Under the pieces are notes generated by a model that worked only from the letters and a program-made list of their open reading frames with translations, was not told the DNA's origin and made no database searches. From assembly GCA_029934055.1 (NCBI GenBank), contig JAOZMZ010000003.1, forward strand, positions 8,692 to 72,691: a stretch of DNA of 64,000 bases. The letters run 5' to 3'. The position numbers and the translations under genes were made by a program. This document shows, one piece after another, positions 35,968 to 51,135 of this stretch; position 1 is the stretch's first letter; each line of letters opens with the position of its first letter. Source of the stretch: Kiritimatiellia bacterium. Lineage in GTDB: Bacteria > Verrucomicrobiota > Kiritimatiellia > B70-G9.

Positions 35968-36114
35968 GAAACGGGCTGTTTTCTGGATATTCCCGGGTTG
36001 CAGGTGAGGTGTGTTTGTCGGGGGAACGATTCTGGAAAAAAGACTTGAAAATTCCTATTGCGGGGGTATTTTAATGTATACCGGTACAGTACCGGTTCAC
36101 ATTGGAGGTGCCTC

Positions 36115-39100
36115 GTGCAGAAGGTTTGGATTGCACTTCTCTTGGCGGCCACGTCCGGTTTCGCGGCGGATTTACTGCAAAACCGGGGGTTTGAAATAGA
36201 GGGTGTCAGTGGCCAGGCGAGCAACTGGTGGTACTATGCCGCCGCCGGGCGTGCCACCTGGGCCCACCGTACGGGAGGGGCCGGAAATGCCTTCTACGCG
36301 GCCGGGAATCAGTGTGGGGGCTTCGGGCAGGATGTCTACGTTGATGCGAGCCGGGGGGATGTGTTCCGTTTTGAAATCTCCGGGAAGGCGGAGATCAACT
36401 ATACCAATCCCGCGACCACGATGGGGATGGAGTTCTGGGCCGCTACCGGCATGTGTTATGCGGTGACCACCACGGTTTATTCGGCCCTGGCATCCAACCG
36501 TAATGAATGGGTATTCCTTTCACTGGTACACACCGCCGAATGTGCCGGCCTGGAAAAGGTTATTGTGCGTTGTGACTTCGCCGACGGCCGCATTGCGGCC
36601 ACTCAGCGGGTGGCGACCTGCCAATGGGATGACGCGCGCTTTTATCAGATGGTGGAGCGTTCCTCTACACCGCCGAACTATGGAAAATATGAACCATTGC
36701 ACGGAGTCTATCTGGGCGTACTTCTCGAGCAGGGCGGCACCGCCGATGAAATCGCCGAGTTCAATCAAAAGGCGGGCAAGACGCATGCGGTGTATGCCAA
36801 GTTCGTGGTTTTCAAGAAAGATCCGTTTCCGCAGGAATGGGTCGAGATGATCAAGAGCAATTATCCCGGGGCGGCGGTTCACCTGATCCTGGAGCCGATG
36901 GTGGATTTTGAAGATTTCTATGCACCCGACTGGGGCCCGGGCCAGGAAACCTACGACGCGGCGCTGGCCTTCGCGACAAATTGCGCCCGGGCCGCCCTTC
37001 CGATCTTCCTGCGCTTTGCCCACGAAGCAAACGGCGACTGGTATCCTTGGCATCCCTCCTATTCCGAGAAGATGGGCATTACCGACACGGTCTCAAATGA
37101 ATCCTACATTGCGGCCTTCCGTAATTTCGCCGACCTGGTGCACTCGAATGCGCCGAACGTGGCTCTCGTGTGGGCCCCGAACCAGGGCAACGGCCCGGAA
37201 CCGATGCCGTACTACGAGGACGTGTATCCCGGCGACGAGTACGTGGACTGGGTGGGTCTGAGCGTCTACAACGGCTGGTCCTACGGCAACAGCAACGATG
37301 TCCTCGATTACCAGTTCCGCAATGCCGTGCAGAAAGGGTATTGGCAGGAAAACGACAACCCTTACGACGATACTTTCGAGGATTTTTACTGGATGTTTTC
37401 AGACCCAGACAATCCCGAAGGGCACCACAAGCCCATGATGATCGCGGAGACCGCCGCCGCATTTGAGCCGAAATACAGTGTCACCAGTACGATAATCATA
37501 GCCGGTTTCGAATCGCTGGATGGTCCGGACTTCGTTTCGTCGAATCTCCTGGCGCAGTTCCAGAGCCTCAACAGTGACGGTTGGGTCAGCAGCAACCGCA
37601 CATGGGTGGAAGGGTTCGAGGACATTGCAACGTGGAATTGGGGCCCTTGGGGCACAAACGGCTGTACATGGAGCAACACCAGCGATGCGGCCGAGGGTAC
37701 CGCCGCCCTGGTGATGAGCGGTTCCCCGGAAGCGGGGGGAACCTATGTAGGTGGAAATGGACGAGGTGTTGGAAGCGTACCATTCGATGAGGTGAAAACG
37801 ATCGCTGACTTCCAGGACCTGAATTCGGACGGGCTGACTATTTCCAATGAAACATGGATCGACGATTTTGACTGGAAGGAGCGCTGGAACTGGGGACCGT
37901 GGGGGGAGGTCTATTTCAGTAATGCGGCGGATTATGTCCAGGGAACCAATGCCTGCGTTCTCGGCGCAATGGACAGCTTCAGCAACGGCGCCTATGTGGG
38001 AGGAACGGGGCGCAATGGGTGGCAGCAGTACTTCCATTTTCCGGTGTTGTATCTCGCGGATTTCGAGAACGTCTGGGGAGACGGTTTGTGGACAACCAAT
38101 CACGTGGCCATTGACGACTTTGAAGACACCACGCCCTGGAATTGGTGCTGGGGCAACCTGGCATGGAGCAACACCAGCGATGCGGCCGAGGGGACCAACG
38201 CGGCCACTCTCGGTGGGGATCCGAATCCGGGCGAGACGTATGTCGGTGGCAACGGCCGCTACCTCAGCGGATGCACCAACTGGAGTGGGAACAACGGGCT
38301 CGAGCTTTGGGTCAAGAGCGTTCCGGGCAGCAATGCTGAGCCGATCCTGAGGATCGGGATCCGCAGCCTGACCAACGATGCTACATATGAGGCGTCCGTT
38401 GAGCGCACCCTGCATGCGAGCGGTTATTATCCCTTGCATGTGTATTTCGATGAGATGGAGGTCTCCAACGGTTTTTCCTGGTCAAACATCGTGGCCGTCA
38501 CGCTCGAGTTGTCCGCCAGCGTCCCCGGCGAGTCTCCCGGATACGTATGTGTTGATGCGTGGGACCTGGTGGACTTGACCAACGCCGATTACATCGCCCG
38601 CGACTGGTGGCCGCGTGGGACCAACCTTGTGCCGCTGGTCGATCCGGAAGACAATCTCGGCGGCACGCATGTCTGGGAGGTGGTGGAGGATTCCTGGGGA
38701 GAGCCCTTTGCGTCGAATTCCTTCATGCTTACGGGTACCGATCCGAACGGCAACGGCTATATCGGCGGGGACGGGTTCGACCTTGCGGAAGAGGAACGGG
38801 ATTGGAGCGATGGTCGCGAAATTTATTTCGTCGCCCGCCGCGGCGAAGGAACAAACGTTGATCCAATTCTTCAAGTGGAACTTGAAGATGGAAACGGCTA
38901 CACGGCGGTGGTCAGCCATGTGCTCTCCTCGACGTATTACTCCAAGCGTTACATGTATTTCTCCAACGCGGTGGTTGAGGCGGGGTTCGACTGGGGAGAC
39001 GTCCGCAGTCTCAAGCTCAACATGCTCACCGCCAGCAACGGGCTGACGCCGGCGCCGATATATATCCAGCGTCTGGAAGTGAAACATCGTAGTCCCGGAG

Positions 39101-41895
39101 CAGACCTTTCCTATTTCAGCGGGATGGGCCTTTGGGTGCACCGTGACGAAGGCACCAACTGCGATCCGGTGCTCAAGATCGGGCTGCGCAGTCCGGATGG
39201 CGGCACCGCTACCATCGAGAAGGTGGTCACCGGCACGGATTGGTATCCTGTGCGTTGGCGCTTCAGCGAGATGAGCCTCAATGGAAGCTTTACGTTCACC
39301 AACGTCACCGGGTACACGGTCGAGTTATGTACCAGCCATTCCAACCAGGCACCGGCCGCCGTGAGTCTCGACAGATTTTTCGCCGCTTTGGTTTCGGCGG
39401 CGCCCGCACACGATCAGGACTGGTGGCCGCTGGGGCCGGAGGCCATTCCGTGGAAAGACGGCAGCGACCCGCAGGGGACGCAGGTGTGGCGGCTGGTCGA
39501 AGATGTGTACACCGGTTATCCGCCGAAGGCCCTGCTGATGACAGGGACCGATTCCAACGCGAACAACTATTGCGGCGGCGACGGATGTCAGTTCAGGCCC
39601 TGTGACATGGACTGGAGCGCCGGCACACACGTGGCTCTTCTGTTGAGGCGGGCGGCCGATCAGGAGCATGAGGACCCGATGCTGATGCTCGATATCATCG
39701 ACGGTGACGGCCATACCGCCACGGTCACGCATGTAGTGGGCGGTACGAGCTACGAATGGGCGTTGCTTTCCTACAGCAATATGGACGTTCAGGCGGGATT
39801 CGCGTGGACCAACGTCACAAGTTTGAAGCTTCACATGCTGACGAAAACCGCCGGAAGAGATCCCGCCGGGCTCTATATCAAGGCCTTTCGGCTTGCAACG
39901 GTACCCCACGAGACTCCACGCGATTGGAGTGCGTTCAACGGCATGGAGTTGACAGTCAAGCATGCGCCCGGCGGGGGGGCGCTGCCCATGTTGGGGATCA
40001 CGGTCAGGAGCGAAGCCGACGGGATCACGGGAACCGCCAGCGTCCAACGGGTCGTCTCGGAAAGCTCCTATTACGTGTTGCGGATTCCGTTCAGCGAGAT
40101 GGAAGTGACGCCGGGCTTCACCTGGAGCAACGTTTCCGCGCTGGTCCTTGAATTGCTGACGACTGAAAGCAATACAACGCCGGCGGCGCTTTACGTGGAT
40201 GACTGGCACTTGGTCAATTTGTCGCCGGCGGCTTACCGGGATCAGGATTGGTGGCCGGCCGGCAGCAATGACAATCCCTGGACGGATGCCACGGATACCA
40301 ACGGGGGGTGGCACTCATGGAGCTTGGTGTCCGATCCCTACGCGGGATATCCCAGCAACGCGCTGAAGATGAGCGGATTCGATGCAAACAGCAACTACTA
40401 CATCGGGGGCAATGGATTTTCCTTGCGTGCCGGCGATCGAGACTGGGAAGGGCTGACGCATATCGCCCTTTTGGCACGGCGTTCCACGGCCGACACCAAT
40501 TTTGCGGAACCTCTGCTGGCGATTTCGCTTGTGGACGGCGGTTCACAGACAGCACGCATAAGTCAGGTGATTACACCCACCAACTACGTCGATCTCCTGC
40601 TTGATTTCACCTATATGGAAGTGGACGAGGGATTCCAGTGGAGCAACGTCCAGTCCGTCATTTTTGAATTGCTGAGCGGGACCCCCGGAAGGCAGCCCGC
40701 CGACGTGTACCTGAAGCAGTTCAGGATCGGCACGGTATCGAACCGTTTTGAGCAGGACTGGTGGAAGGAAGGCGAAGACCTTGAGCCGTGGGGAGACATC
40801 ACCTGGACGCAGACGAGCGATTCCGCCGCAGGAGAATATGCGCTGTTGATTTCGGGCGTGGTTACCAATTCGGAGCAGTGGTATATCGGCGGCAACGGGT
40901 GCAGTCTGGCGATTCCGGAGCAGAACTGGACCAACAGCAACGCGATCGTCCTGTACGCCAAGCGTGGACATGCCAACCGTCCGGATCCCAAGATCAGGAT
41001 CACCGTAGACAATGATTACTCCGAGACCAACGGCAATGAGGCCTACGTGATGACGCGGTTGGCCAACAGTAACTACACGGAAATAATCATACCCTTCAGC
41101 GCATTCGATATGGCGCAGGATTTCGAGTGGGACAGCATCCGGATGTTGAAGCTGGAAATGTTCACCAACCGGGGCGGAGATACACCCAACGACATTTATA
41201 TCGACCAATTGAGGCGCGCCCGCGTTACACTGACGAACGGCGAGGACAATTTGCGCTGGAAACGCGACTGGTACGATCAGCTCTACTCCCTGAGCGACTA
41301 TGCCGACGCTGATCCCGCCGACCCCGACGCTCATCCGGATTATGTTTCCATATCGCGTTGCTTCCGCAACATCCACATGATCAACTGGTTCCACGTCCGC
41401 AAGTTCGAGGACGGCTTTACCAAGGACCTCAGAATAGTGGAGGAGGGGACGGGAACGGTGGCTTACACTTCATACTATGATCATATCAGGGATTCATATT
41501 TCCTCACCAACGTGATTCGCGATACGGATTGTGATGGGATGCCCGACGACTGGGAGACGCAGAATTTCGGCGGGCCGACCAACGCTGATGCTTGCGCGGA
41601 TTCCGACGGAGACGGGTTGGGCAATCTTCAGGAGTACATAGCCGGGACCGATCCGTGTGATGTGGGTTCTGCATTCGAGATAGCAAGCGGGGGGGCGGCA
41701 TCCGGACCGGGGGGGATAACTATTCAGTGGGCGAGTGTCGCCGGGCGCGTGTATACCCTGAGCCGGACCACCAACCTCCTGGCCGGTTTCTGCAGCTACG
41801 TGACCAATATCGCGGCGACTCCGCCGACCAATTATCATACGGACAGTTCGACTGCGGGAGATCCGGTGTTCTATCGCATTCAGGTGTTGCCATGA
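36115..41895 (+). CDS. Giant secreted multidomain glycan-active protein: signal peptide, CBM4/9-like domain, GH26-like catalytic domain, array of CBM11-like modules, Asp-rich Ca-binding (TSP3/dockerin-like) repeat, C-terminal FYRI tail domain
   Basis: GTG 36115 after GGAGG (36104-36108) gives VQKVWIALLLAATSGFA|ADLLQNRGFE. GH26-type motifs: IFLRFAHEANGDWYPWHP, YPGDEYVDWVGLSVYNGW, KPMMIAETAAA. Repeats carry W.W..WG...WSNTSDAAEGT...YVGGNG and DWWP.G. Also DTDCDGMPDDWE...DSDGDGLGNLQEYIAGTDP. Ends DPVFYRIQVLP. Confidence 0.85.
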   Translation: MQKVWIALLLAATSGFAADLLQNRGFEIEGVSGQASNWWYYAAAGRATWAHRTGGAGNAFYAAGNQCGGFGQDVYVDASRGDVFRFEISGKAEINYTNPATTMGMEFWAATGMCYAVTTTVYSALASNRNEWVFLSLVHTAECAGLEKVIVRCDFADGRIAATQRVATCQWDDARFYQMVERSSTPPNYGKYEPLHGVYLGVLLEQGGTADEIAEFNQKAGKTHAVYAKFVVFKKDPFPQEWVEMIKSNYPGAAVHLILEPMVDFEDFYAPDWGPGQETYDAALAFATNCARAALPIFLRFAHEANGDWYPWHPSYSEKMGITDTVSNESYIAAFRNFADLVHSNAPNVALVWAPNQGNGPEPMPYYEDVYPGDEYVDWVGLSVYNGWSYGNSNDVLDYQFRNAVQKGYWQENDNPYDDTFEDFYWMFSDPDNPEGHHKPMMIAETAAAFEPKYSVTSTIIIAGFESLDGPDFVSSNLLAQFQSLNSDGWVSSNRTWVEGFEDIATWNWGPWGTNGCTWSNTSDAAEGTAALVMSGSPEAGGTYVGGNGRGVGSVPFDEVKTIADFQDLNSDGLTISNETWIDDFDWKERWNWGPWGEVYFSNAADYVQGTNACVLGAMDSFSNGAYVGGTGRNGWQQYFHFPVLYLADFENVWGDGLWTTNHVAIDDFEDTTPWNWCWGNLAWSNTSDAAEGTNAATLGGDPNPGETYVGGNGRYLSGCTNWSGNNGLELWVKSVPGSNAEPILRIGIRSLTNDATYEASVERTLHASGYYPLHVYFDEMEVSNGFSWSNIVAVTLELSASVPGESPGYVCVDAWDLVDLTNADYIARDWWPRGTNLVPLVDPEDNLGGTHVWEVVEDSWGEPFASNSFMLTGTDPNGNGYIGGDGFDLAEEERDWSDGREIYFVARRGEGTNVDPILQVELEDGNGYTAVVSHVLSSTYYSKRYMYFSNAVVEAGFDWGDVRSLKLNMLTASNGLTPAPIYIQRLEVKHRSPGADLSYFSGMGLWVHRDEGTNCDPVLKIGLRSPDGGTATIEKVVTGTDWYPVRWRFSEMSLNGSFTFTNVTGYTVELCTSHSNQAPAAVSLDRFFAALVSAAPAHDQDWWPLGPEAIPWKDGSDPQGTQVWRLVEDVYTGYPPKALLMTGTDSNANNYCGGDGCQFRPCDMDWSAGTHVALLLRRAADQEHEDPMLMLDIIDGDGHTATVTHVVGGTSYEWALLSYSNMDVQAGFAWTNVTSLKLHMLTKTAGRDPAGLYIKAFRLATVPHETPRDWSAFNGMELTVKHAPGGGALPMLGITVRSEADGITGTASVQRVVSESSYYVLRIPFSEMEVTPGFTWSNVSALVLELLTTESNTTPAALYVDDWHLVNLSPAAYRDQDWWPAGSNDNPWTDATDTNGGWHSWSLVSDPYAGYPSNALKMSGFDANSNYYIGGNGFSLRAGDRDWEGLTHIALLARRSTADTNFAEPLLAISLVDGGSQTARISQVITPTNYVDLLLDFTYMEVDEGFQWSNVQSVIFELLSGTPGRQPADVYLKQFRIGTVSNRFEQDWWKEGEDLEPWGDITWTQTSDSAAGEYALLISGVVTNSEQWYIGGNGCSLAIPEQNWTNSNAIVLYAKRGHANRPDPKIRITVDNDYSETNGNEAYVMTRLANSNYTEIIIPFSAFDMAQDFEWDSIRMLKLEMFTNRGGDTPNDIYIDQLRRARVTLTNGEDNLRWKRDWYDQLYSLSDYADADPADPDAHPDYVSISRCFRNIHMINWFHVRKFEDGFTKDLRIVEEGTGTVAYTSYYDHIRDSYFLTNVIRDTDCDGMPDDWETQNFGGPTNADACADSDGDGLGNLQEYIAGTDPCDVGSAFEIASGGAASGPGGITIQWASVAGRVYTLSRTTNLLAGFCSYVTNIAATPPTNYHTDSSTAGDPVFYRIQVLP
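37504..41223 (+). repeat. Intragenic array of divergent CBM-like protein repeats (2 N-half units, 5 full ~160-aa modules, 2 C-half units)
   Basis: Hand alignment. N-half units at 37504-37773 and 37774-38022. Full modules at about 38035-38577, 38599-39081, 39415-39897, 40243-40728 and 40753-41223. C-half-only units at 39094-39387 and 39910-40218. DWW[PK].G anchors sit at aa 849, 1121, 1397 and 1567 of the ORF-track protein. Confidence 0.6.
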
Positions 41896-42413
41896 GAAGA
41901 CATGCTTCAGTCGGCACGATAGCAGCACTTCTGTTGAGTTCCACGTTGGCGGCGGGCATGGAGCATCGTATCGGCCGGTGGAATCACCGGGGCCTCGACG
42001 GCTGGGAGATGGGAAGAACCAAGCCGGCTGTATGGATCAAGGTCGCAAGGGGGCAGGGCCGCGAGGGTCGGGGATGCCTGATGATCCTCACGCGTCCGGG
42101 TTGGTCACAGGCGGCGGCGACTGCCAAGTACCGCAAATACATACAGGAGGGGCGGGCTGTCCTGCTGGACGTTTTCGCCGACAGCCAGGAGTTCCGGGGG
42201 GACGTGCTGAAATTGGGGATCGCCATTCAGTCTGCGCAGACGATTTTCGACGAGTCGTCCTTTCAGGTGGTCGAGTTCGATCGTTGGCAGACTCTGAGAT
42301 TTGATTACGACCGTACCAAGCACCGCAAGTCCGACTGGACTATTTTGAACATTTTGACCTTATGCGGTAATAGTGGGCACCTGTTGATAGACAACGTTCG
42401 CATTGAAAAGTAG
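41892..42413 (+). CDS. Small secreted CBM-like protein, translationally coupled to the giant gene
   Basis: ATG 41892 overlaps the giant gene's stop (ATGA). Signal peptide MRRHASVGTIAALLLSSTLAAG. The body ends ...GHLLIDNVRIEK, resembling the C-terminal strand of the repeat modules (YIDQLRR, YVDDWHL). Confidence 0.6.
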   Translation: MRRHASVGTIAALLLSSTLAAGMEHRIGRWNHRGLDGWEMGRTKPAVWIKVARGQGREGRGCLMILTRPGWSQAAATAKYRKYIQEGRAVLLDVFADSQEFRGDVLKLGIAIQSAQTIFDESSFQVVEFDRWQTLRFDYDRTKHRKSDWTILNILTLCGNSGHLLIDNVRIEK

Positions 42414-42458
42414 GGGGGGGCAACTGCCGAAGCCTGCTGGGAGCGCGCCCAATTTTTC

Positions 42459-42487
42459 TTGTCATCCCACAAGAATTGTGCTATAGA
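42459..42487 (+). promoter_or_regulatory. Candidate sigma70-like promoter upstream of the PAS kinase gene
   Basis: TTGTCA (42459-42464), a 17-nt spacer, then TATAGA (42482-42487), inside an unusually AT-rich 140-nt intergenic region. Confidence 0.3.
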
Positions 42488-42553
42488 AGTCAGCGATAAA
42501 AGAGCTGTGTACATATCCCCGAACTAGATTCGCGCAAGGAGTACGCATCCACT

Positions 42554-44335
42554 GTGAGCGCGGTACCAAAAGCAAATTCCGGAAAGACGACCCCCAACGG
42601 CTTCGGTGAACGGGCGGCATTCCGGATTACCTTGCTATACCTGATTGTGGGCGGAGGATGGACGCTTTTTTCCAACATCGTTTTGAGAATGCTGGTCAGC
42701 GATGTGGCGGCGCTTTCGCTGGTCCAGATCTATCAAGGGTGGATATATGTCCTGGCGACGGCGCTGATGTTGCACGTTCTCATCCATCGCAACATGCAGG
42801 AGTTGCATGAGCGGGACCTCGAGATTCAGACGCGAAAGGATGAAATCAACGCGATATTGCATACCACGCCGGATATCATCTTCCGGATCTCGCGGGATGG
42901 TATTTTCATGGCGTGCCATGCCCCGGACGAATCGGTGCTTGCGGTGCGCCCTTCGGAATTCTTGAACCGTCGCTTGGAGGATATTCTGCCGCAGGCAATT
43001 GCACGCGGGGCGCGGGAACACATCCACCGCGTGTTGGAGAGCGGGGGGGTGGAAGTTTTCGAGTACGATCTTTTTCTGCAAGGTGAACGTCATTGGTATG
43101 AGGCGCATATTGCGCCATATGATGAAGCGAGCGTGTTGGCCATCGTGCGCGACATAACCTTGAGGCGGCGGGCCGAGGCGGAGCGAGCCAGATTGGCCAC
43201 GGTGATTGAGCAGGCCGCCGAAGGCATCATTCTGGCGGACACCAGTGGAATCATTCGCTATGTGAACCCGGCGTTCGAGACGATTACGGGGTTTACGCGG
43301 CAAGAAGCCCTGGGCCGCAGTACTTTCTTCCTTCGTTCAGAGCGTGAGGGCAGCAGCGTGTACGGTGAGATCCGCACCGCGCTTGAGAAGGGCGAAGTCT
43401 GGCGCGGTCGTCTTACCAGCCGGCGCAAGGATGGCGCTTATTTCAATGCGGAGATCGGCATATTCCCTATGCGTTCCGCGACGGGTGAGATCGTGAATTA
43501 TGTGGGCATTGTCCGCGACATAACCCGTGAGGTGGAACTGGAGAAGCAGTTCGTTCAGGCCCAGAAAATGGAATGTGTGGCGCGTCTCGCCGGGGGCATC
43601 GCACACGATTTCAATAATTTGCTGACGACCATCATCAATACCGGGCAGATTTTGCGCGAGGAGGGGGATCTTCCGGAGGACGTGCGGCGTGACGTTACCC
43701 AGATGGTACGGGCGGCGGAGAGCGGCGCCCGTTTGGCCCGGCGACTTCTTGGGCTGAGCCGGCGTACCGAGGTGCGGCGGGAACCGGTATTGCTGGACGA
43801 GGTTCTTGAGGGCATTGAACCGGTGCTGCGTCGGGCGGTGGGCAGTCAGATCAACTTCGAAGCCTCACACGGTGCGGGTTACGCACGCGTCATGGCCGAT
43901 CGCGGGGAGTTGGAGCAGGTGATCATGAACTTGGTCGTCAATGCTCGCGATGCCATGCAGGGCGGGGGCGGCCGGTTGATCGTACGTTCGTCGCGTGTGA
44001 CCCTGACGGCCGAAGAGTGCCGGAGTCGGCTGGGGATACAACCCGGTGAATATGTCGTCCTCAGTGTCCGTGATTTCGGATGCGGCATGTCTGAAGAGGT
44101 ACGCGAGCATGCATTCGACCCTTTTTTTACAACCAAGGGCAAGGAAAAGGGAACAGGGTTGGGGCTTTCGACGGTGTACAACATAGTTCAACATATGGGG
44201 GGGTATATTGAACTCGACACCGAATTCGAGCGGGGCACGGAGTTTCGTATCTATCTGCCGTGCCTGGAAGGGGCGCCTTCAGATGCGGCGGGTGCATTCA
44301 ACGGCGAATCGGCGTCCAATTCCCTTCCCTTGTAG
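42554..44335 (+). CDS. Membrane-bound PAS/PAS sensor histidine kinase
   Basis: Two N-terminal TM helices and two PAS units (ILHTTPDIIFRISRDG..., VIEQAAEGIILADTSGIIRYVNPAFETITGF). H-box RLAGGIAHDFNNLLTTI; N-box MNLVVNARDAM; G-boxes DFGCGM and GTGLGLSTVYN. No receiver domain. GTG start. Confidence 0.85.
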   Translation: MSAVPKANSGKTTPNGFGERAAFRITLLYLIVGGGWTLFSNIVLRMLVSDVAALSLVQIYQGWIYVLATALMLHVLIHRNMQELHERDLEIQTRKDEINAILHTTPDIIFRISRDGIFMACHAPDESVLAVRPSEFLNRRLEDILPQAIARGAREHIHRVLESGGVEVFEYDLFLQGERHWYEAHIAPYDEASVLAIVRDITLRRRAEAERARLATVIEQAAEGIILADTSGIIRYVNPAFETITGFTRQEALGRSTFFLRSEREGSSVYGEIRTALEKGEVWRGRLTSRRKDGAYFNAEIGIFPMRSATGEIVNYVGIVRDITREVELEKQFVQAQKMECVARLAGGIAHDFNNLLTTIINTGQILREEGDLPEDVRRDVTQMVRAAESGARLARRLLGLSRRTEVRREPVLLDEVLEGIEPVLRRAVGSQINFEASHGAGYARVMADRGELEQVIMNLVVNARDAMQGGGGRLIVRSSRVTLTAEECRSRLGIQPGEYVVLSVRDFGCGMSEEVREHAFDPFFTTKGKEKGTGLGLSTVYNIVQHMGGYIELDTEFERGTEFRIYLPCLEGAPSDAAGAFNGESASNSLPL

Positions 44336-44440
44336 TGTGCCGCCGTGATATATTCAACTCGGTAGCGGTGGCAGGTGGTTTGCACGCCTGTCGATCGCGA
44401 GAGGGTTGAATCAACATGTAGGAAGCGGCAGGGGGACAGG

Positions 44441-45565
44441 ATGTTTGTAGAGAAGACGGGGATCAGGCCTATTCTCAAGGCGATTGATGATATCCATCCG
44501 CAGGAGACGGGCATGGTCCTCATCTTTCTGGCACAGGAGAAGCATCCGGCCCTGAAGGCGTTGGTGCGGGAGTTGAACCGGCGGAATGTGCGTTTCATGG
44601 GGGGGGTGTTTCCGGCGGTGATCCATGACGGGCGGGTGTACAGGAGCGGGGCGGTGGTGATGTCTTTACCGGTGGTGGGGCGCCCTCATCGTACGACGGG
44701 GCTCGATCGCACGACCGAGGCGATGAAGGATCTGCAAAACTGTGTGGACTGGGAAGCAGCTCGTCGTTACACGGCGTTTATTCTTGTGGATGGGTGGACG
44801 ACCCACATTGCCGATTACACCGCGGAGATTTTCAGGCGCCTCGGTAACGCGGTGGGATATATCGGCGGCGGGGCCGGCACCGAGGAGCCGGGGCGGACGG
44901 AATGCCTTTTCAGTAACGAGGGCCCGGTTGCCGATGCAGCCTTTTGTGCGATTGTGCCTCTCGAGAGTTCGCTGGGGGTGCGTCACGGGTGGCGGCGCTT
45001 CAAAGGGCCCCTGGTGGCAACGAGGACACGGGGCAACGTGATCTGTGAACTGAACTGGCGCAGGGCGTTCACAGTATACCGCGAGGCGGTGGAAGCCGAC
45101 TGTGGTTGTCACCTGACCACCGCTGATTTTTACTCGGTGAGTTCCCGTTATCCGTTCGGGATATACAAGGAAGGGGCCGAGTATGTTGTGCGCGACCCGA
45201 TCAGCGTGAACAGTGCCGGTGAGATCCGGTGTGTCGGGGAGATCCCCGAGAACACCGTCTTGAGCATAATGAAGGGGGAGAAGGAGTCGTTGATTTCGGC
45301 GGCCCGTGATGCGGCCGAAGAGTGCTGTGCCAGCAGCCGCGGAACGCCGAGGGGATGCCTGGTCGTGGATTGCGTTTCACGTTCTCTTTTCCTGCAGGAG
45401 GATTACGAAAGGGAGATGGATAGCGTGGCGAAACGCCTGAAGGACCTGTGTGGGTGTGCCACCACGGAAGGGTTCCTTTCGATAGGGGAAATTTCTTCGT
45501 ACGGGGAAGGGTTTTTGGAATATTTCAATAAGACCGTGGTGGTCGCGGCCCTGTTGGAAGAATGA
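44441..45565 (+). CDS. FIST-domain (FIST_N + FIST_C) signal-transduction protein
   Basis: ATG 44441 gives MFVEKTGIRP.... GVFPAVIHDG...VVMSLP, ...ILVDGWTTH..., ...YPFGIYKEG...DPISV... and CVSRSLFL resemble FIST domains. The stop overlaps the next kinase's start (ATGA). Confidence 0.65.
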   Translation: MFVEKTGIRPILKAIDDIHPQETGMVLIFLAQEKHPALKALVRELNRRNVRFMGGVFPAVIHDGRVYRSGAVVMSLPVVGRPHRTTGLDRTTEAMKDLQNCVDWEAARRYTAFILVDGWTTHIADYTAEIFRRLGNAVGYIGGGAGTEEPGRTECLFSNEGPVADAAFCAIVPLESSLGVRHGWRRFKGPLVATRTRGNVICELNWRRAFTVYREAVEADCGCHLTTADFYSVSSRYPFGIYKEGAEYVVRDPISVNSAGEIRCVGEIPENTVLSIMKGEKESLISAARDAAEECCASSRGTPRGCLVVDCVSRSLFLQEDYEREMDSVAKRLKDLCGCATTEGFLSIGEISSYGEGFLEYFNKTVVVAALLEE

Positions 45566-47316
45566 AGGAGCCTCGGGACAGTTTCGAAAAGACGATCGCG
45601 GACATGTCGGTCCTGTACGAACTGGCGCTGGCGGTGGGCCGATCCTCCGATCTGCGACGCAACTGTGACATTTTTCTGAAGACTCTGATGGCGCGCAAGA
45701 ACCTGGGGTATGCGGCGGTCTGGTTGAATTCTGAATTATTGAGTCCGCGGAAGGATTCTGGGCAGCCGCATGCGGTCATGGTATACGCCGAACCCGAGTT
45801 CTACGTTCAGCAGCGCGAGTTGCCCCTTTCTCATCCCATATTCCGGCTTCTGCGCAAGGAGACGGCAGTGACGGTGGCTGCAGGCGATCCCCTTTTCACC
45901 GAAGTGACGACCGAGAAAAACATCCGTGGCGGCGTTTGGGCGTTGCTGAGCCTGAATCATCTGGGGGTGTTGAAGCTGCTTTCCTATACGCGCAAGGAGC
46001 CTTTCAGCGAGGAGGACCTGAACTATCTGCGGAATGTAATCGGTAAGTTCGCCGATTCCATTCATGCCTGTCTGGATCATCAACGTCTTCAGGAAGAAGT
46101 CGCCCGCCGTCGCGAGGCCGAGGAGGCATTGCGAAAGAGCCAGGAGCAGCTTGTCGAGGCTCAGAAGATGGAGGCGCTCGGGCGTCTCGCCGGGGGCATC
46201 GCCCATGATTTCAACAACCTCTTGACCACGATATTGGGATATGGACGTCTGGCCATGGGGCATCTTTACGACAAGGATCCGGTCCGGGATGATCTTGCCG
46301 AAGTGATTCATGCCGGGGAGCGCGCGGTGGAATTGACATCGCAGCTTCTGACGTTGGGGCGGCGGAGGGCCAGTCATCCACGACCGGTGAATCCCAACAG
46401 TATCATTGCGGACACGGATCGCCTCTTGAGGCGCACATTGGGCGAGGACATCGAGATCGCCACGGTGCTGGGAGAGAATCTCGGGGGCATTATTATTGAT
46501 CCGGCGCAATTGCAACAGGTGATAATGAATCTGGCGATCAACGCCCGGGATGCAATGCCGGACGGCGGCAAGTTGACGATCGAGACGTCTCTGGTGGAAT
46601 TGGATGAAACCTTTTGCAAGGGGCGCGCCGAGCTCAGCCCGGGCACGTACGTGAAGATCGTCGTGGCGGATACGGGCACGGGAATGACACCGGAAGTACG
46701 CCGGCATGTTTTCGAGCCATTCTTCACGACGAAGGAGACCGGCAGGGGGTCAGGACTCGGTCTTTCCACCGTCTACGGAATAGTCCATCAGGCGGGAGGG
46801 TGGATCGACATAGAGTCTGCCCCGGGTGAGGGGACGCGCGTGATCCTGTACTTTGCACGTCGGGAGGAATTGGCTGCGGAAGTCCTGCCCGACCGCCGGG
46901 CGGCGGAGACCCCCAGGGGGACGGAGACCATTCTCGTCGTTGAAGACGAGGAGTCGGTCAGGATGTTTACCGTCAAGGTGCTTCAGGAGCTCGGCTACAA
47001 CGTGTTGCAGGCGGGTAACGGGGGTGAGGCCCTCCTGCTTTTTGATACCTACCGCGGGCCGATCCATCTGGTGTTGACCGATGTAGTCATGCCCCTGATG
47101 AATGGAAAGGAACTAGTCCGCCGCCTGCGCCGCACGGGGCGCGAGTTCAAGGTGCTTTATGTTTCCGGGTTTTCCGACGAGGTATTTGCCGAGAAAGATT
47201 CTAGTGCCGAAGCTTCGTTGCTGCAGAAACCGTATACGGGCGATCGGCTCGGACGGGTGGTGCGCAGCGTGCTCGACGGTGAAGTGAGCGGGGTCCTGCC
47301 GGGCATCGTATCCTGA
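45562..47316 (+). CDS. Hybrid sensor histidine kinase (GAF-like, HisKA, HATPase_c, REC)
   Basis: H-box RLAGGIAHDFNNLLTTILG; N-box MNLAINARDAM; DTGTGM; GSGLGLSTVYG. Receiver ILVVEDEESVRM...HLVLTDVVMPLMNGKEL...KVLYVSGF. Confidence 0.85.
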   Translation: MKEPRDSFEKTIADMSVLYELALAVGRSSDLRRNCDIFLKTLMARKNLGYAAVWLNSELLSPRKDSGQPHAVMVYAEPEFYVQQRELPLSHPIFRLLRKETAVTVAAGDPLFTEVTTEKNIRGGVWALLSLNHLGVLKLLSYTRKEPFSEEDLNYLRNVIGKFADSIHACLDHQRLQEEVARRREAEEALRKSQEQLVEAQKMEALGRLAGGIAHDFNNLLTTILGYGRLAMGHLYDKDPVRDDLAEVIHAGERAVELTSQLLTLGRRRASHPRPVNPNSIIADTDRLLRRTLGEDIEIATVLGENLGGIIIDPAQLQQVIMNLAINARDAMPDGGKLTIETSLVELDETFCKGRAELSPGTYVKIVVADTGTGMTPEVRRHVFEPFFTTKETGRGSGLGLSTVYGIVHQAGGWIDIESAPGEGTRVILYFARREELAAEVLPDRRAAETPRGTETILVVEDEESVRMFTVKVLQELGYNVLQAGNGGEALLLFDTYRGPIHLVLTDVVMPLMNGKELVRRLRRTGREFKVLYVSGFSDEVFAEKDSSAEASLLQKPYTGDRLGRVVRSVLDGEVSGVLPGIVS

Positions 47317-47363
47317 GCGGAGCGGCTTGTCGCCTGCGCCCGGCGGGGGTATCCTTGGGAACC

Positions 47364-48773
47364 ATGCGACGCAGGGATACTTTCGATGTGCTTACCAGTG
47401 CGGCGGCGGCGGCGGCGGACGCCTTGGCGGTTTTTGCCGGATTCATGCTGGCGGTGTGGACCCGTTTCGACAGCGGGTGGATACCGATGGTGCATGAGGG
47501 CAGTCCACCGCGTTCCCTCTACATTTACGGTGCTGCCTTGGCGACATTGCTATTTCTTTTCATTTTCCGGTCGCTGGGTCTGTATGTGCGGCCGCAAACG
47601 GGCACGTTCGCCGAGAAGATCCCCCGGCTGGTGCGGGCCGTGGCTTTGGGTATCCTTTTGGCGACCGCCCTGGCTTTCGCCATCCGCACCGAGCCGCCCT
47701 ATTCGCGTTTGACGGTGCTGTTGTCGTTTTTCACCGTGAGTCTGCTGGTTCTGATCGAGCGCGGGATCCTTTTCCATATCGAACTCCGCCTTGCACGCAG
47801 GCGCCAGGCCGACAGCCGCGTCATAATCGTCGGGACCGATGCCGTCGCTGCGCGTCTGAAATTGGCCCTTGAGGAAGAACCGCGTCTGCGCTCCAAGGTG
47901 GTAGCGTTTCTTCAGGTGGGGGAAACGGAGAGAGACGAGATGGTCCCGGTGGAACTCGTCAAGGGAAGCCTTGCCGATATGGACCGGATTCTTGCAGAGG
48001 AGGGGGCCGATCAGCTGCTTTTGGCGGACACGTCCTTGAGACGTGACCAGATGGTGGACGTGATCCTGCACTGCGAAAAGCACATGGTGGATTTTTTCCT
48101 CGTGCCGGATATTTTCCGCGTACTCACAAGTGATGTCGAGATTCAGATGGTGGACGGAATTCCGTTGCTGGGGCTCAGCAAGTGGCCTTTGGATTTTTTC
48201 TGGAACCGTGTTCTCAAGCGTATCGAAGACATCATCGGGGCGTTGCTGGGTTTGATCGTGTCCGCGCCGGTGATTGGGATCGCTGCACTGTTCATACGGC
48301 GGCAGTCGCCGGGGCCGGTTTTCTACAGGCAGGAACGCTGTGGCGAAAAAGGCCGCGTTTTCACGTTATACAAGTTACGCACGATGTATCCCGATGCCGA
48401 AAAGGAGACCGGCCCGGTCTGGGCTTCTCCGGAGGATCCCCGCCGCACACCGATCGGGCGCTTTCTGCGGCGCTACAATCTTGATGAGCTGCCCCAGTTC
48501 TGGAATGTCCTCAGGGGAGACATGAGCCTTGTCGGCCCCCGCCCGGAGCGTCCTCATTTTGTGGAACGTTTCCGCGAGGATATCGGCCGGTACATGTGGC
48601 GTCACGCCTCCCGGCCCGGCATGACGGGCTGGGCCCAGGTAAATGGATTGCGCGGCCGTACCAGCATTCATGAGCGCATCAAGTATGATCTTTATTACCT
48701 TGAAAATTGGTCATTGGCCTTTGATTTCAAGATACTGATCATGACCTTTTTCGCCCATCGGAACGCCTACTAG
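47364..48773 (+). CDS. Undecaprenyl-phosphate sugar phosphotransferase (WbaP/EpsB-type priming glycosyltransferase, Bac_transf domain)
   Basis: Four N-terminal TM helices and a central Rossmann-like region. The C-terminus has KRIEDIIGALLGLIVSAPV..., PGPVFYRQERCG..GRVFTLYKLRTM, DELPQFWNVLRGDMSLVGPRPERP. Confidence 0.85.
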   Translation: MRRRDTFDVLTSAAAAAADALAVFAGFMLAVWTRFDSGWIPMVHEGSPPRSLYIYGAALATLLFLFIFRSLGLYVRPQTGTFAEKIPRLVRAVALGILLATALAFAIRTEPPYSRLTVLLSFFTVSLLVLIERGILFHIELRLARRRQADSRVIIVGTDAVAARLKLALEEEPRLRSKVVAFLQVGETERDEMVPVELVKGSLADMDRILAEEGADQLLLADTSLRRDQMVDVILHCEKHMVDFFLVPDIFRVLTSDVEIQMVDGIPLLGLSKWPLDFFWNRVLKRIEDIIGALLGLIVSAPVIGIAALFIRRQSPGPVFYRQERCGEKGRVFTLYKLRTMYPDAEKETGPVWASPEDPRRTPIGRFLRRYNLDELPQFWNVLRGDMSLVGPRPERPHFVERFREDIGRYMWRHASRPGMTGWAQVNGLRGRTSIHERIKYDLYYLENWSLAFDFKILIMTFFAHRNAY

Positions 48774-48878
48774 TACGGTTAGGCCCCCGGACAGGCGGGG
48801 GTTGGAATGGCCGCGAGCGGATGATATGCTTCTCGGGCGAGAGTGGCGGGTGTTAGATATGTCACGGAGGACACGAAC

Positions 48879-49307
48879 ATGATCCCCGATCTGCAATCGA
48901 GCATTTTGTGCGACGACGTCAGGCAGGAAAGGAACGGGAAATTCATTCTCATCGGTTTGTTCGACGCCATTGCTGCACGAAGCCTGCCGATCCGTTACCC
49001 GCGTCTGTTCATGGTTACGCGGTGGTGCAGCGGCGAGGGTGAATTCCGGCAGCGGACCCGTATCCTGGGCCCCGACCAGAAGAATCCTGTCGCCGAAGGA
49101 AAGGACATTCCGGTCAGGTTGCCTTCTCCGGAATCCACGGCGACCAACGTGGAAGTGTTCATGAACGTATCGTTCGACAAGGCGGGTACCTACTGGATAG
49201 AGATTCTGCTGGATGGAGATCTGAAGCTGCGGTATCCGTTGCGTGTTTCCAAGGTTTCCACCCCGCCGGTTCCTCCCGACGACGGGGCGCGGAGCGGCGG
49301 CGAGTGA
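48879..49307 (+). CDS. Hypothetical small protein (beta-rich, no signal peptide)
   Basis: ATG 48879 after GGAGG gives MIPDLQSSILCDDVRQERNGKFILIGLFD.... I could not make a confident family assignment. Confidence 0.5.
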   Translation: MIPDLQSSILCDDVRQERNGKFILIGLFDAIAARSLPIRYPRLFMVTRWCSGEGEFRQRTRILGPDQKNPVAEGKDIPVRLPSPESTATNVEVFMNVSFDKAGTYWIEILLDGDLKLRYPLRVSKVSTPPVPPDDGARSGGE

Positions 49308-49341
49308 AGAGGGGCGAGGATCCCGAAATTCGGCCGGTGTG

Positions 49342-51135
49342 ATGGAAGGTTCCCCGGTGGGAGAGAAGCGCAAAAAGTTGATCGCCGGATTGATTCTTTC
49401 GGTGGTGCTGACGCTGGCTTACCTGCCGGTCCTGAATGCGGTGTTTCTGCTGGATGACAACGATGAACTGGCTCACGTCGGCAATATGCAGAGCATTTCC
49501 GCGGTGTGGGGCGCCGACTGCTACGGATTTTTCAGGCCGGCGAAGAATCTCCTGTACTATTTCGTAACCCGTGCGGCCGGGAGGAATCGAACAGCGGCTC
49601 GCGTGATATCCTTGGGTCTCCTGCTGTTGGCCGCCAACATGATTTCGTATTACCTGCGGCGGTTGGGGTTGGATTTCCGGACGGCCTACGCCAGTACGGC
49701 ATTGTGGGCATTGGCGCCTACGTTGGTCAGTTCGGTGGCATGGTTCAGTTGTGCCAACATTCTGCTGATGACCGGAATGGGAGTGGGTGCGTTGCTGAGC
49801 TGGGAGAATTTCTCATACAGTACCGGTGGGCGCGCGGCTGCCTGGTTGGCAGTTGCAGGAATATTGTATGTGGCGGCGATGACGGCCTACGAGGCGGCGA
49901 TCGTTGTGCCCGCATTGATCATCATTCGTGAATTCTTGATCGTCCGTCGCACCGGACGCGTCCCGCGGAGGGCCCTGGCCCTGGCCCTACTGCTGGCACT
50001 GGGCCTGGGCTATTTCGTGCTGCTTCGGTGGCACGTATCCTCGACGGTGGTCGGAATTCTGTCTATTGCGCCCGCACCACCGGCGATGATGTCGTTTTCG
50101 GCGGCCTTACTGATGATATATCACTTGGGGCTTTGGCTGTGGCCCTTCGGCCGACTGACCATTCTGAGCACGTTTGATCCGCAGGCGCCGGGGATGATGC
50201 CGGCGGCAGCGGCAGCCTGGATTCTCGTGACGGCGATTTTCGTCATGCTATGGCGATTGCGCAGGCGGATACCGTTTGTTGTTTTTGGAATACTGTTCTT
50301 TTTCATCGCCATTCTCCCACTCAGCAATCTGGTACCACTCTACAACGGACCCATGGCCGATTATTACCTCAGCTTCGCCAGCATTGGTTTGGCGGTAGCG
50401 GTCGGCTGGATGCTGATGACAGGGTTCCGGCGTCTGCGTGAGAGAGGGGTCAAAGCGGAACGGTGGTGGTCTCTAGTGGTTGTGATTCTGATCGCGTGGC
50501 GGGCCGCCGCAGCGTTGTATGTGCCGCTATGGGCGGCGGCCTGGTCGTCGGAGAGGCGCCTTTTGCAGGCGGCGGTCGTCAATGCTCCCTGGAACAACGC
50601 CGCGCGGGCGGAGCTGGCGCGTGTAATCGTCGGGGAGAAAGGCCAATTGAGCACGGCCTTGCACCTGGCGCAGCAGTCCGTTGAGGGAGCGCCGTGGTGT
50701 CCGCGGGGCTACTATTCGCTGGCGGATGTTTTCAGCCGCATGGGGCGCTACGCTGAGGCCCGCCGTGTATTGGATCGTCTGATACAGAAGTATCCGGACC
50801 TGACCACGGCGTACGTTCTTGAAGGGGCCCTTTACGATCGCAGCGGGCAGACGGCTTCGGCGGAACGTTGCTACCGCAAGGCGCTTGACTTGCGGTGGCA
50901 TCCCCAGTACTCACCCATTGCGGCGATCAACCTGGGCGGACTGCTCTACCAGCAGGGAAAGACAAATGAGGCTCTCGAGGTATGGCGCAGTGCAGCCGCG
51001 CGTGATCCGTACAGCCTTGAGTTACAGGCCAACCTCGCCTTTCTCTACACTCAGCTTGGAGAGACCGAGCTGGCCGCCCGCCATCTGGACCGCGCGCGCC
51101 GTCTGGGATACTCCGGCGATGCCTTCCGGCGGTGA
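49342..51135 (+). CDS. Polytopic membrane protein with C-terminal TPR repeats (TMTC/PMT-like glycosyltransferase-C-fold candidate)
   Basis: ATG 49342 gives MEGSPVGEKRKKLIAGLILSVVLTLAYLPVLNAVFLLDDNDEL, followed by about 10 TM helices and TPR-like repeats (...YYSLADVFSRMGRYAEARRVLDRLIQKYPD..., ...EGALYDRSGQTASAERCYRKAL...). Confidence 0.65.
   Translation: MEGSPVGEKRKKLIAGLILSVVLTLAYLPVLNAVFLLDDNDELAHVGNMQSISAVWGADCYGFFRPAKNLLYYFVTRAAGRNRTAARVISLGLLLLAANMISYYLRRLGLDFRTAYASTALWALAPTLVSSVAWFSCANILLMTGMGVGALLSWENFSYSTGGRAAAWLAVAGILYVAAMTAYEAAIVVPALIIIREFLIVRRTGRVPRRALALALLLALGLGYFVLLRWHVSSTVVGILSIAPAPPAMMSFSAALLMIYHLGLWLWPFGRLTILSTFDPQAPGMMPAAAAAWILVTAIFVMLWRLRRRIPFVVFGILFFFIAILPLSNLVPLYNGPMADYYLSFASIGLAVAVGWMLMTGFRRLRERGVKAERWWSLVVVILIAWRAAAALYVPLWAAAWSSERRLLQAAVVNAPWNNAARAELARVIVGEKGQLSTALHLAQQSVEGAPWCPRGYYSLADVFSRMGRYAEARRVLDRLIQKYPDLTTAYVLEGALYDRSGQTASAERCYRKALDLRWHPQYSPIAAINLGGLLYQQGKTNEALEVWRSAAARDPYSLELQANLAFLYTQLGETELAARHLDRARRLGYSGDAFRR

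Follow-up and report, generated by a model that had tools for sequence, protein, structure and literature searches.

Two pieces of a GH26 catalytic domain flank a long array of CBM11-like modules in a 1,926-residue protein of a Kiritimatiellia bacterium

The gene and its product

We analysed a stretch of 64,000 nucleotides of a Kiritimatiellia bacterium (contig JAOZMZ010000003.1), hereafter the window, and in particular the gene at positions 36115-41895 of its forward strand, whose product carries the marks of a glycoside hydrolase of family GH26. Our results support the notion that the GH26 barrel of this protein is, with high probability, one structural domain that is encoded discontinuously, with about 1,250 residues between its two pieces, in a secreted enzyme of the Lic26A-like branch. 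A single open reading frame (ORF) runs from 36058 to 41895 (+), and the GTG at 36115 opens a reading of 1,926 residues and then a stop. The product is database protein P0102 (100% identity, full length, same start). The gene had been picked out in an earlier reading of the window, made from the sequence only, as the largest in the window at 5.8 kb, and it is indeed the largest ORF. An assembly artefact, such as the mis-assembly of a repeat, was considered and rejected because an independent assembly from JGI encodes a 1,926-residue protein (P0121) with 1,903 of 1,926 identities (99%) and no gaps, and because many orthologues exist. The features of the gene that lie outside the insert are the following.

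36115..41895 (+), whole gene: 1,926 residues plus stop, GTG start
36115..36168 (+), predicted Sec signal peptide MQKVWIALLLAATSGFAA (residues 1-18), recognised by inspection from small residues that come after a hydrophobic core
36172..36684 (+), N-terminal beta-sandwich-like domain (residues 20-190), possibly CBM4_9-like from Pfam matches in relatives
36685..37479 (+), first piece of the GH26 barrel (residues 191-455), beta1 to beta7, from Pfam, the Lic26A alignment, a hidden Markov model (HMM) and a structural model
37024-37026 (+), acid/base E304, by alignment to Lic26A E109
37447-37449 (+), nucleophile E445, by alignment to Lic26A E222
41230..41514 (+), second piece of the GH26 barrel (residues 1706-1800): alpha7, beta8 (IHMINWFH) and alpha8, from the HMM, the Lic26A alignment and the model
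41386-41388 (+), invariant W1758, which is W319 of the joined construct described below
41521..41649 (+), two bacterial TSP3-type (calcium-binding) repeats (residues ~1803-1845), from Pfam TSP3_bac
41650..41892 (+), conserved C-terminal domain ending FYRIQVLP (residues ~1846-1926), shared with P0002, P0003 and most orthologues

The GH26 catalytic domain

GH26-type motifs had been proposed in order along the protein, and all of those quoted are present: FLRFAHEANGDWYPW (residues 298-312, nt 37006-37050), YPGDEYVDWVGLSVY (residues 371-385, nt 37225-37269) and KPMMIAETAAA (residues 439-449, nt 37429-37461) and, far downstream within residues 1714-1774, RWKRDWY (nt 41254-41274), HPDY (nt 41332-41343), FRNIHMINWFHV (nt 41362-41397) and TKDLRI (nt 41419-41436). 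The similarity to GH26 is significant. The Pfam profile Glyco_hydro_26 (PF02156) reaches 35.7 bits against a cutoff of 20.2, aligning with residues 290-396 only, and this match was not extended when Pfam was run on the two joined pieces or on the distal piece alone. Since the sensitivity of Pfam for a single sequence was too low, a custom GH26 profile was needed. The best solved relative is CelH/Lic26A of C. thermocellum (E 6.6e-13, residues 293-401). The acid/base E304, in the HE-x-NG motif FAHEANG at the end of beta4, aligns with E109 of Lic26A; the nucleophile E445, in MMIAET at the end of beta7, with E222; and W1758, in INWF on beta8 of the distal piece, with W255, all three columns being invariant. 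W1758 would be the aromatic residue that clan GH-A enzymes are expected to have at the -1 subsite. The protein thus shows the family-profile match, both catalytic glutamates and the beta8 aromatic of a GH26 member, and the full barrel needs both pieces combined.

The custom profile was an HMM of 30 contiguous, ordinary GH26 proteins from which the query was left out. Against the full protein, it gives two matches and no more, which follow on from each other along the profile and total 194 bits: positions 39-321 correspond to residues 185-462 (166.7 bits) and positions 313-371 to residues 1707-1781 (E 2.7e-8, or 2.9e-10 for the distal piece alone). We then compared a joined construct, made of residues 190-455 and 1706-1800, with contiguous proteins. 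Many ordinary GH26 proteins of 350-450 residues, which have no insertion, cover 89-100% of it in one BLASTP segment and align straight across the junction. The alignments with P0006 and P0007, for example, cross this artificial point uninterrupted; in the latter, KPMMIAETAAAFEPKYS joined to LTNGEDNLRWKRDWYDQLY...IHMINWFHV...DLRI...YYDHIRDSYFL of the window protein pairs with KPMMIAETSALYDP...IKKEWVKQVYT...VKAILWFS...DWRL...YYSEVVADPYFI of P0007. In the resulting alignment of 31 sequences, E304, E445 and W1758, which are E115, E256 and W319 in the numbering of the joined construct, are among the invariant positions. The GH26 profile spans residues 6-281 of Lic26A, its whole chain, and the distal piece corresponds to residues 231-281. 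The break maps by profile alignment between G230 and N231 of Lic26A, in the beta7-alpha7 loop and about 10 residues past the nucleophile. At the level of sequence, these comparisons demonstrate that both pieces are homologous to one contiguous GH26 domain.

Structure prediction of the joined pieces as a single chain gave an eight-stranded barrel, with a mean predicted local distance difference test score (pLDDT) of 84 and a predicted template modelling score (pTM) of 0.89. The first piece supplies seven strands and the second supplies beta8 (IHMINWFH, pLDDT ~96). In Foldseek, the joined construct matches the Lic26A structures with a template modelling (TM) score of 0.79-0.81 over 355-361 columns, compared with 0.61 when the N-terminal piece alone is alignable. 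In consistency with the sequence-only reading, the distal segment therefore completes the barrel in the comparisons made here: the two-fragment HMM match, the invariant tryptophan, the full-length match to Lic26A, the joined fold and the gain in TM score all point the same way. A complete barrel within residues ~200-480, next to an unrelated distal segment, was looked for and was not found. It is true that Pfam aligns GH26 only to residues 290-396 and finds nothing in the distal segment, as would be the case if the barrel were complete within residues ~190-480 and residues 1706-1800 formed an unrelated domain with a chance resemblance to the GH26 C-terminus. This explanation is nevertheless very improbable: the N-terminal piece has seven strands only and ends at the nucleophile strand, while the distal piece, by itself, finds the last third of the ordinary-GH26 profile at exactly consecutive positions, bears a family-invariant tryptophan, aligns to the end of Lic26A and lifts the TM score from 0.61 to 0.81.

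Two points weigh against the split-barrel reading. In the model of a fragment of the orthologue P0106 (1,091 residues, insert present), the distal piece has a pLDDT of only ~56-71, with one stretch below 50. Moreover, the model of the joined pieces is that of an artificial construct, which shows compatibility and not the native state. We infer that the barrel closes in the native protein. Residues ~191-455 would supply beta1 to beta7 with E304 and E445, and residues ~1706-1800 would supply alpha7, beta8 with W1758 and alpha8, the insert leaving and re-entering the barrel at the beta7-alpha7 loop, on its catalytic face.

The inserted modules and their arrangement

The gap between the barrel pieces had been estimated at about 1,250 residues and measures 1,250 (residues 456-1705). 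Fragment self-comparison revealed extensive internal repetition, and the insert is made of seven CBM11-like beta-sandwich modules of ~170 residues each. Every module can be divided into an N-half, A, which ends with Y[IVC]GG[NDT]G, and a C-half, B, which starts near DWS and contains DP.L. Some halves stand apart from a direct partner and are called orphans (A' and B'). Along the insert, the following features were delimited, the half-modules with half-module HMMs.

37480..37578 (+), conserved entry linker after the nucleophile strand, VTSTIIIAGFESLDGPDFVSSNLLAQFQSLNSDG (residues 456-488), kept in 17 of 18 family proteins
37579..37764 (+), orphan N-half A'1 (residues 489-550), proposed partner 1270-1371 (half-module HMM)
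37831..38016 (+), orphan N-half A'2 (residues 573-634), proposed partner 997-1095 (half-module HMM)
38083..38583 (+), complete CBM11-like module A'3+B, innermost (residues 657-823; half-module HMM)
38578..39096 (+), complete CBM11-like module (residues 822-994; self-comparison and half-module HMM)
39103..39399 (+), orphan C-half B' (residues 997-1095), proposed to close A'2 (half-module HMM; hydrophobic core pattern kept)
39391..39909 (+), complete CBM11-like module (residues 1093-1265; self-comparison and half-module HMM)
39922..40227 (+), orphan C-half B' (residues 1270-1371), proposed to close A'1 (half-module HMM)
40222..40743 (+), complete CBM11-like module (residues 1370-1543; self-comparison and half-module HMM)
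40708..41226 (+), complete CBM11-like module, the last before the barrel resumes (residues 1532-1704; half-module HMM)

The description of the insert as repeats resembling carbohydrate-binding modules (CBM) holds for the fold. In Foldseek, the modules match CtCBM11, from Lic26A-Cel5E of C. thermocellum (1v0a, 6r31, 6r3m), with TM scores of 0.58-0.63 over 166-167 columns, and their fold is also like that of CBM30 (TM 0.55), tandem CBM22 and CIA30 (TM 0.50). It does not hold for family membership, and the sequence results weigh against a CBM11 assignment: the best module (residues 657-823, both halves of which are homologous to the last module) gives a weak Pfam CBM_11 match with E 0.03 and 14.8 bits, where the cutoff is 27, the same Pfam profile found nothing in two other modules, and the module sequence profile had no match in the PDB even at E <= 10. 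Given this fold resemblance without a sequence match above the Pfam threshold or in the PDB, we call the modules CBM11-like and not CBM11 members.

The edges of the insert are well kept. The entry linker has no counterpart in the distant P0119 and is present in the other 17 of the 18 proteins compared; in the P0106 model, its equivalent forms two strands (pLDDT ~87-90). The linker (IIIAGFESLDGPDF...FQSLNSDG, residues 456-488) is similar to the first strand of the modules, 'FE..W'. At the other end, the junction from the last module to the barrel is kept in the fragments P0002 and P0003 and in all orthologues.

Beyond what had been noted earlier, the inserted modules themselves look nested. The seven A and seven B halves of the window protein stand in the order AAABABBABBABAB, which in brackets is ((()())())()() and perfectly balanced. 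The half-module strings of relatives are as follows.

ABABAB: nine orthologues, P0107-P0115
AABBABAB: P0106, with a single orphan pair, A'[AB]B'
AABABBABAB: P0103, P0104 and P0105
AABABB: P0130, which has a contiguous barrel and the array appended
AAABABBABB: P0129 (completed by fragment P0128), which has a contiguous barrel and the array appended

All strings seen are balanced, the orphan N-halves always equal the orphan C-halves in number (1:1, 2:2 or 3:3), and most strings fit A'^n (B' A B)^n with up to two further AB modules. For the window protein, we propose the nesting A'1[A'2[A'3B'. AB]B'. AB]B'. AB. AB, in which three of the seven modules would be nested in one another and which, with the barrel, would give four levels of domain within domain.

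Several observations, together with the balance of the strings, favour recursive nesting of the half-modules. The two halves of each proposed pair have the same relatives: A'2 and the B' at residue 997 are both closest to the contiguous first module of P0108, and A'1 and the B' at residue 1270 are both closest to the outermost split pair of P0103-P0106. The correlation between A and B identities is highest for the nested pairing among the six possible pairings (0.80, versus 0.55-0.79 for the others). Orphan halves retain the hydrophobic core pattern of contiguous halves, and those of the P0106 model have a pLDDT of 75-91. Moreover, insertion inside CBM11-like modules does occur: the relative P0116 has an N-half interrupted precisely between its HMM positions 41 and 43 by a whole FGE-sulfatase domain (Pfam 695-983). 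An apparent CBM4_9-like domain was also seen in P0116 inside the C-half that follows this N-half.

Two results count against nesting: the alternative pairings of halves score only modestly lower than the nested one, and the balanced strings share descent and are not independent trials, a single string of seven plus seven halves being balanced by chance in 1/8 of cases. It is thus possible, if less likely, that the barrel is split and the half-modules are not nested, being independent small domains or halves with another pairing that arose by separate tandem duplications of 85 and ~275 residues. Residues 473-720 indeed contain three copies of ~85 residues, and residues 722-1546 have a period of ~275 residues. 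However, orphan counts match and nesting is proper in every architecture, the appended arrays included, with N-halves first and C-halves last, and P0106 holds just one orphan pair around one complete module. A single tandem duplication cannot give these strings; matched events would be needed at each step. In addition, the orphan C-halves start exactly at the mid-domain DWS motif and keep the core hydrophobic pattern. On the order and kinship of the halves, we therefore regard recursive nesting as the fairly probable arrangement. We lean, with less assurance, towards its fullest form, a four-level 'Russian doll' in which a TIM barrel would contain three CBM11-like sandwiches, each lodged in the one before. 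Repeated self-insertion in the family would then have followed A'^n (B' A B)^n (A B), n being 1 to 3. If this is true, the array would be a rigid, loop-anchored glycan-binding platform within the active-site architecture and not a flexible appendage.

Relatives, genomic context and function compared with known systems

A first genome scan with the whole protein as query found no loci. With an alignment as query, seven loci were found in metagenome-assembled genomes (MAGs) of Verrucomicrobiota, Spartobacteria, Kiritimatiellae and Lentisphaerae, and six of the seven are full-length ORFs with the acid/base motif and with the beta8 motif 590-950 residues past the nucleophile position; the nucleophile motif itself is present in five of these six. 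Protein searches gave 17 orthologues of 1,148-1,702 residues (P0103-P0119). The split architecture was seen in 23 other full-length relatives, whose named sources are Verrucomicrobiota or Kiritimatiellia assemblies, among them the 17 orthologues and six further cluster representatives (P0124-P0127, P0132 and P0136). The family is rare, with 24 matches among 1.84 billion cluster representatives for a query of residues 1540-1800 (last module and barrel end). Both junctions are highly conserved, with the consensus AETAAAFEPKY.V.N..LIAGFESLDGP at the entry and VTLTNG.DN.KWK.DW..QLY at the exit. Across the family, the inserts form a graded series that runs from one to five modules in steps of one and then to seven; one-module split barrels are P0125, P0132 (with a sorting tail of the type IX secretion system, T9SS) and P0136, and two-module ones are P0124, P0126 and P0127. 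The distance from nucleophile to beta8 in 18 proteins was 388, ~590 (n=10), ~607 (n=2), 787, ~950 (n=3), 1,077 and 1,311 residues, the last and largest being that of the window protein, compared with 33 in Lic26A; it is shorter than 388 in the one-module members.

Two relatives deserve separate mention. P0116 (1,702 residues, L004:12997-18105, +) is a paralogous split GH26 found 1.3 kb downstream of a first copy; the two share a MAG contig and are separated by a gene for a GntR/periplasmic-binding regulator. P0130 (1,749 residues) has two GH26 domains, the first of them partial and the second with ~200 extra residues inside.

The N-terminal domain had been called CBM4/9-like, which finds weak support: the window copy has no Pfam match, but CBM_4_9 was matched in 2 of 11 orthologous copies (best E 1.9e-5) and in P0116 (E 3.9e-4). 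A profile of this domain had no meaningful match in the PDB. TSP3_bac was matched in the isolated tail with E 8.1e-5, under the gathering score. The C-terminal domain (residues ~1846-1926) has no Pfam family match. Such a domain of ~80 residues, with the terminal motif FYR[IV].V.P, follows the TSP3 repeats in most family members; a possible role is that of a signal for sorting or anchoring in bacteria of the Planctomycetes-Verrucomicrobia-Chlamydiae (PVC) group. In some relatives, LamG, FGE-sulfatase, FG-GAP repeats or a T9SS tail stand in its place.

The gene had been placed at the head of a cluster with sensing and polysaccharide-priming genes. Such genes do lie downstream on the same strand (42554-51135, +), namely a PAS histidine kinase, a FIST protein, a hybrid kinase/receiver, a Bac_transf sugar-phosphate transferase and a TPR protein, but the functional link is unsupported because the orthologous loci have different neighbours. 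These are CarB, GuaA, a gene of the CDP-alcohol phosphatidyltransferase family, a GntR/sugar-binding regulator and a GH10-CBM4_9 gene. The idea that the enzyme processes the bacterium's own exopolysaccharide, in one cluster with the downstream sensor kinases and Bac_transf, draws on this run of genes. It is improbable and was rejected, as the neighbourhood is not conserved, a gap of 660 nt (41896-42553) precedes the kinase, and the upstream genes are housekeeping ones (UvrD, GcvT, a UVR-motif protein and TatD). Within the gap, only an ORF of 108 residues (41978-42304) without a family match was found, and no terminator-like site; the results of a promoter and terminator scan were at chance level. 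The run at 42554-51135 looks like a regulated exopolysaccharide-initiation module that is independent of the GH26 gene. In one Kiritimatiellae MAG, the split GH26 orthologue has a GH10 xylanase gene with CBM4_9 (L006:9244-11889, -) at a distance of 2.7 kb, which hints at a context of plant or algal glycan degradation in that genome.

Concerning function, the protein is most likely an active retaining endo-beta-glycanase, secreted or exposed at the surface. The acid/base glutamate, the nucleophile glutamate and the beta8 tryptophan are strictly conserved across the split family and ordinary GH26, and the entry and exit junctions are conserved to a degree expected if the barrel must reassemble. 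Both facts make it unlikely that the protein is an inactive glycan-binding adhesin or scaffold that retains a disrupted GH26 remnant, a possibility with which the modest confidence of the distal barrel piece in the model with insert, the many binding-type modules, the TSP3 repeats and the conserved C-terminal domain would agree. In an active enzyme, the binding modules would emerge from the catalytic face and might hold a polymeric substrate beside the cleft. The modules would bind glycan. CBM11 binds mixed-linkage glucan and Lic26A is a lichenase; from these nearest relatives, a beta-glucan-like polymer is our low-confidence guess for the substrate.

Since standard profiles cover only a third of the catalytic domain, such enzymes are likely mis-annotated as fragments. 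The graded series of inserts, together with the relatives that carry appended arrays, might serve to examine the tolerance of a TIM barrel for a very large insertion in one of its loops, and the series offers a way to study how domains of one kind come to be inserted recursively in each other. It could moreover show if modules anchored on the catalytic face alter substrate capture differently from appended ones.

Among known systems, CtLic26A, the GH26 lichenase module of C. thermocellum CelH (PDB 2bv9, 2cip, 2v3g), is the closest solved relative by sequence and fold. It has the same pair of catalytic glutamates (E109/E222) and the same beta8 tryptophan (W255), and CelH also bears the CBM11 (1v0a) whose fold is nearest to that of the inserted modules. 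However, its barrel is contiguous (~280 residues), its CBM11 is appended rather than inserted, and its identity to the window protein is ~23-26%, so that its substrate specificity is not transferable. The relatives P0129 (1,198 residues) and P0130 have the same CBM11-like half-modules in nested strings, AAABABBABB and AABABB respectively. They differ by an ordinary, contiguous GH26 barrel, with 55-64 residues between nucleophile and beta8 and the array placed after it.

Binding modules within a catalytic region have been described in other families. The GH10 Xyn10C/Pm25 xylanases of Bacteroidota have two CBM4 between beta3 and alpha3 (PMC7848910), where an interrupted GH10 catalytic domain is cited from Flint et al. 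1997. As in the window protein, their modules lie within the sequence of a clan GH-A TIM barrel and are not appended, and the architecture is clade-wide. The host family and the site are different: two CBM4 at beta3-alpha3 of GH10, compared with three to seven CBM11-like modules at beta7-alpha7 in most relatives of the window protein. Their insert is much smaller (620 residues from the beta3 to the beta4 motif, versus a 1,250-residue insert here), and its modules are not nested. In SusG (GH13), CBM58 is inserted in domain B, as described in PMC7848910; here too a binding module lies within the catalytic region of a glycoside hydrolase, but it is a single one, in another family and at another site. 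For the nesting, the nearest parallel is Si3 of the cyanobacterial RNA polymerase beta' subunit, in which beta-sandwich-type domains are recursively nested to as many as six levels (PMC13114784). There, the recursive insertion of such domains in one another leads to the same bracket-like order of half-domains. Si3 is an unrelated protein with another fold family and function, and its nesting is seen in structures, whereas that of the window protein is proposed from half-module order and orthology. In our literature searches, no interrupted GH26 came up, and neither did a seven-module insert of 1,250 residues or one at a site directly after the nucleophile. Interrupted barrels are known in GH10 and GH13; what distinguishes the window protein is the GH26 host, the beta7-alpha7 site, the far larger insert and the probable nesting of its modules in one another.

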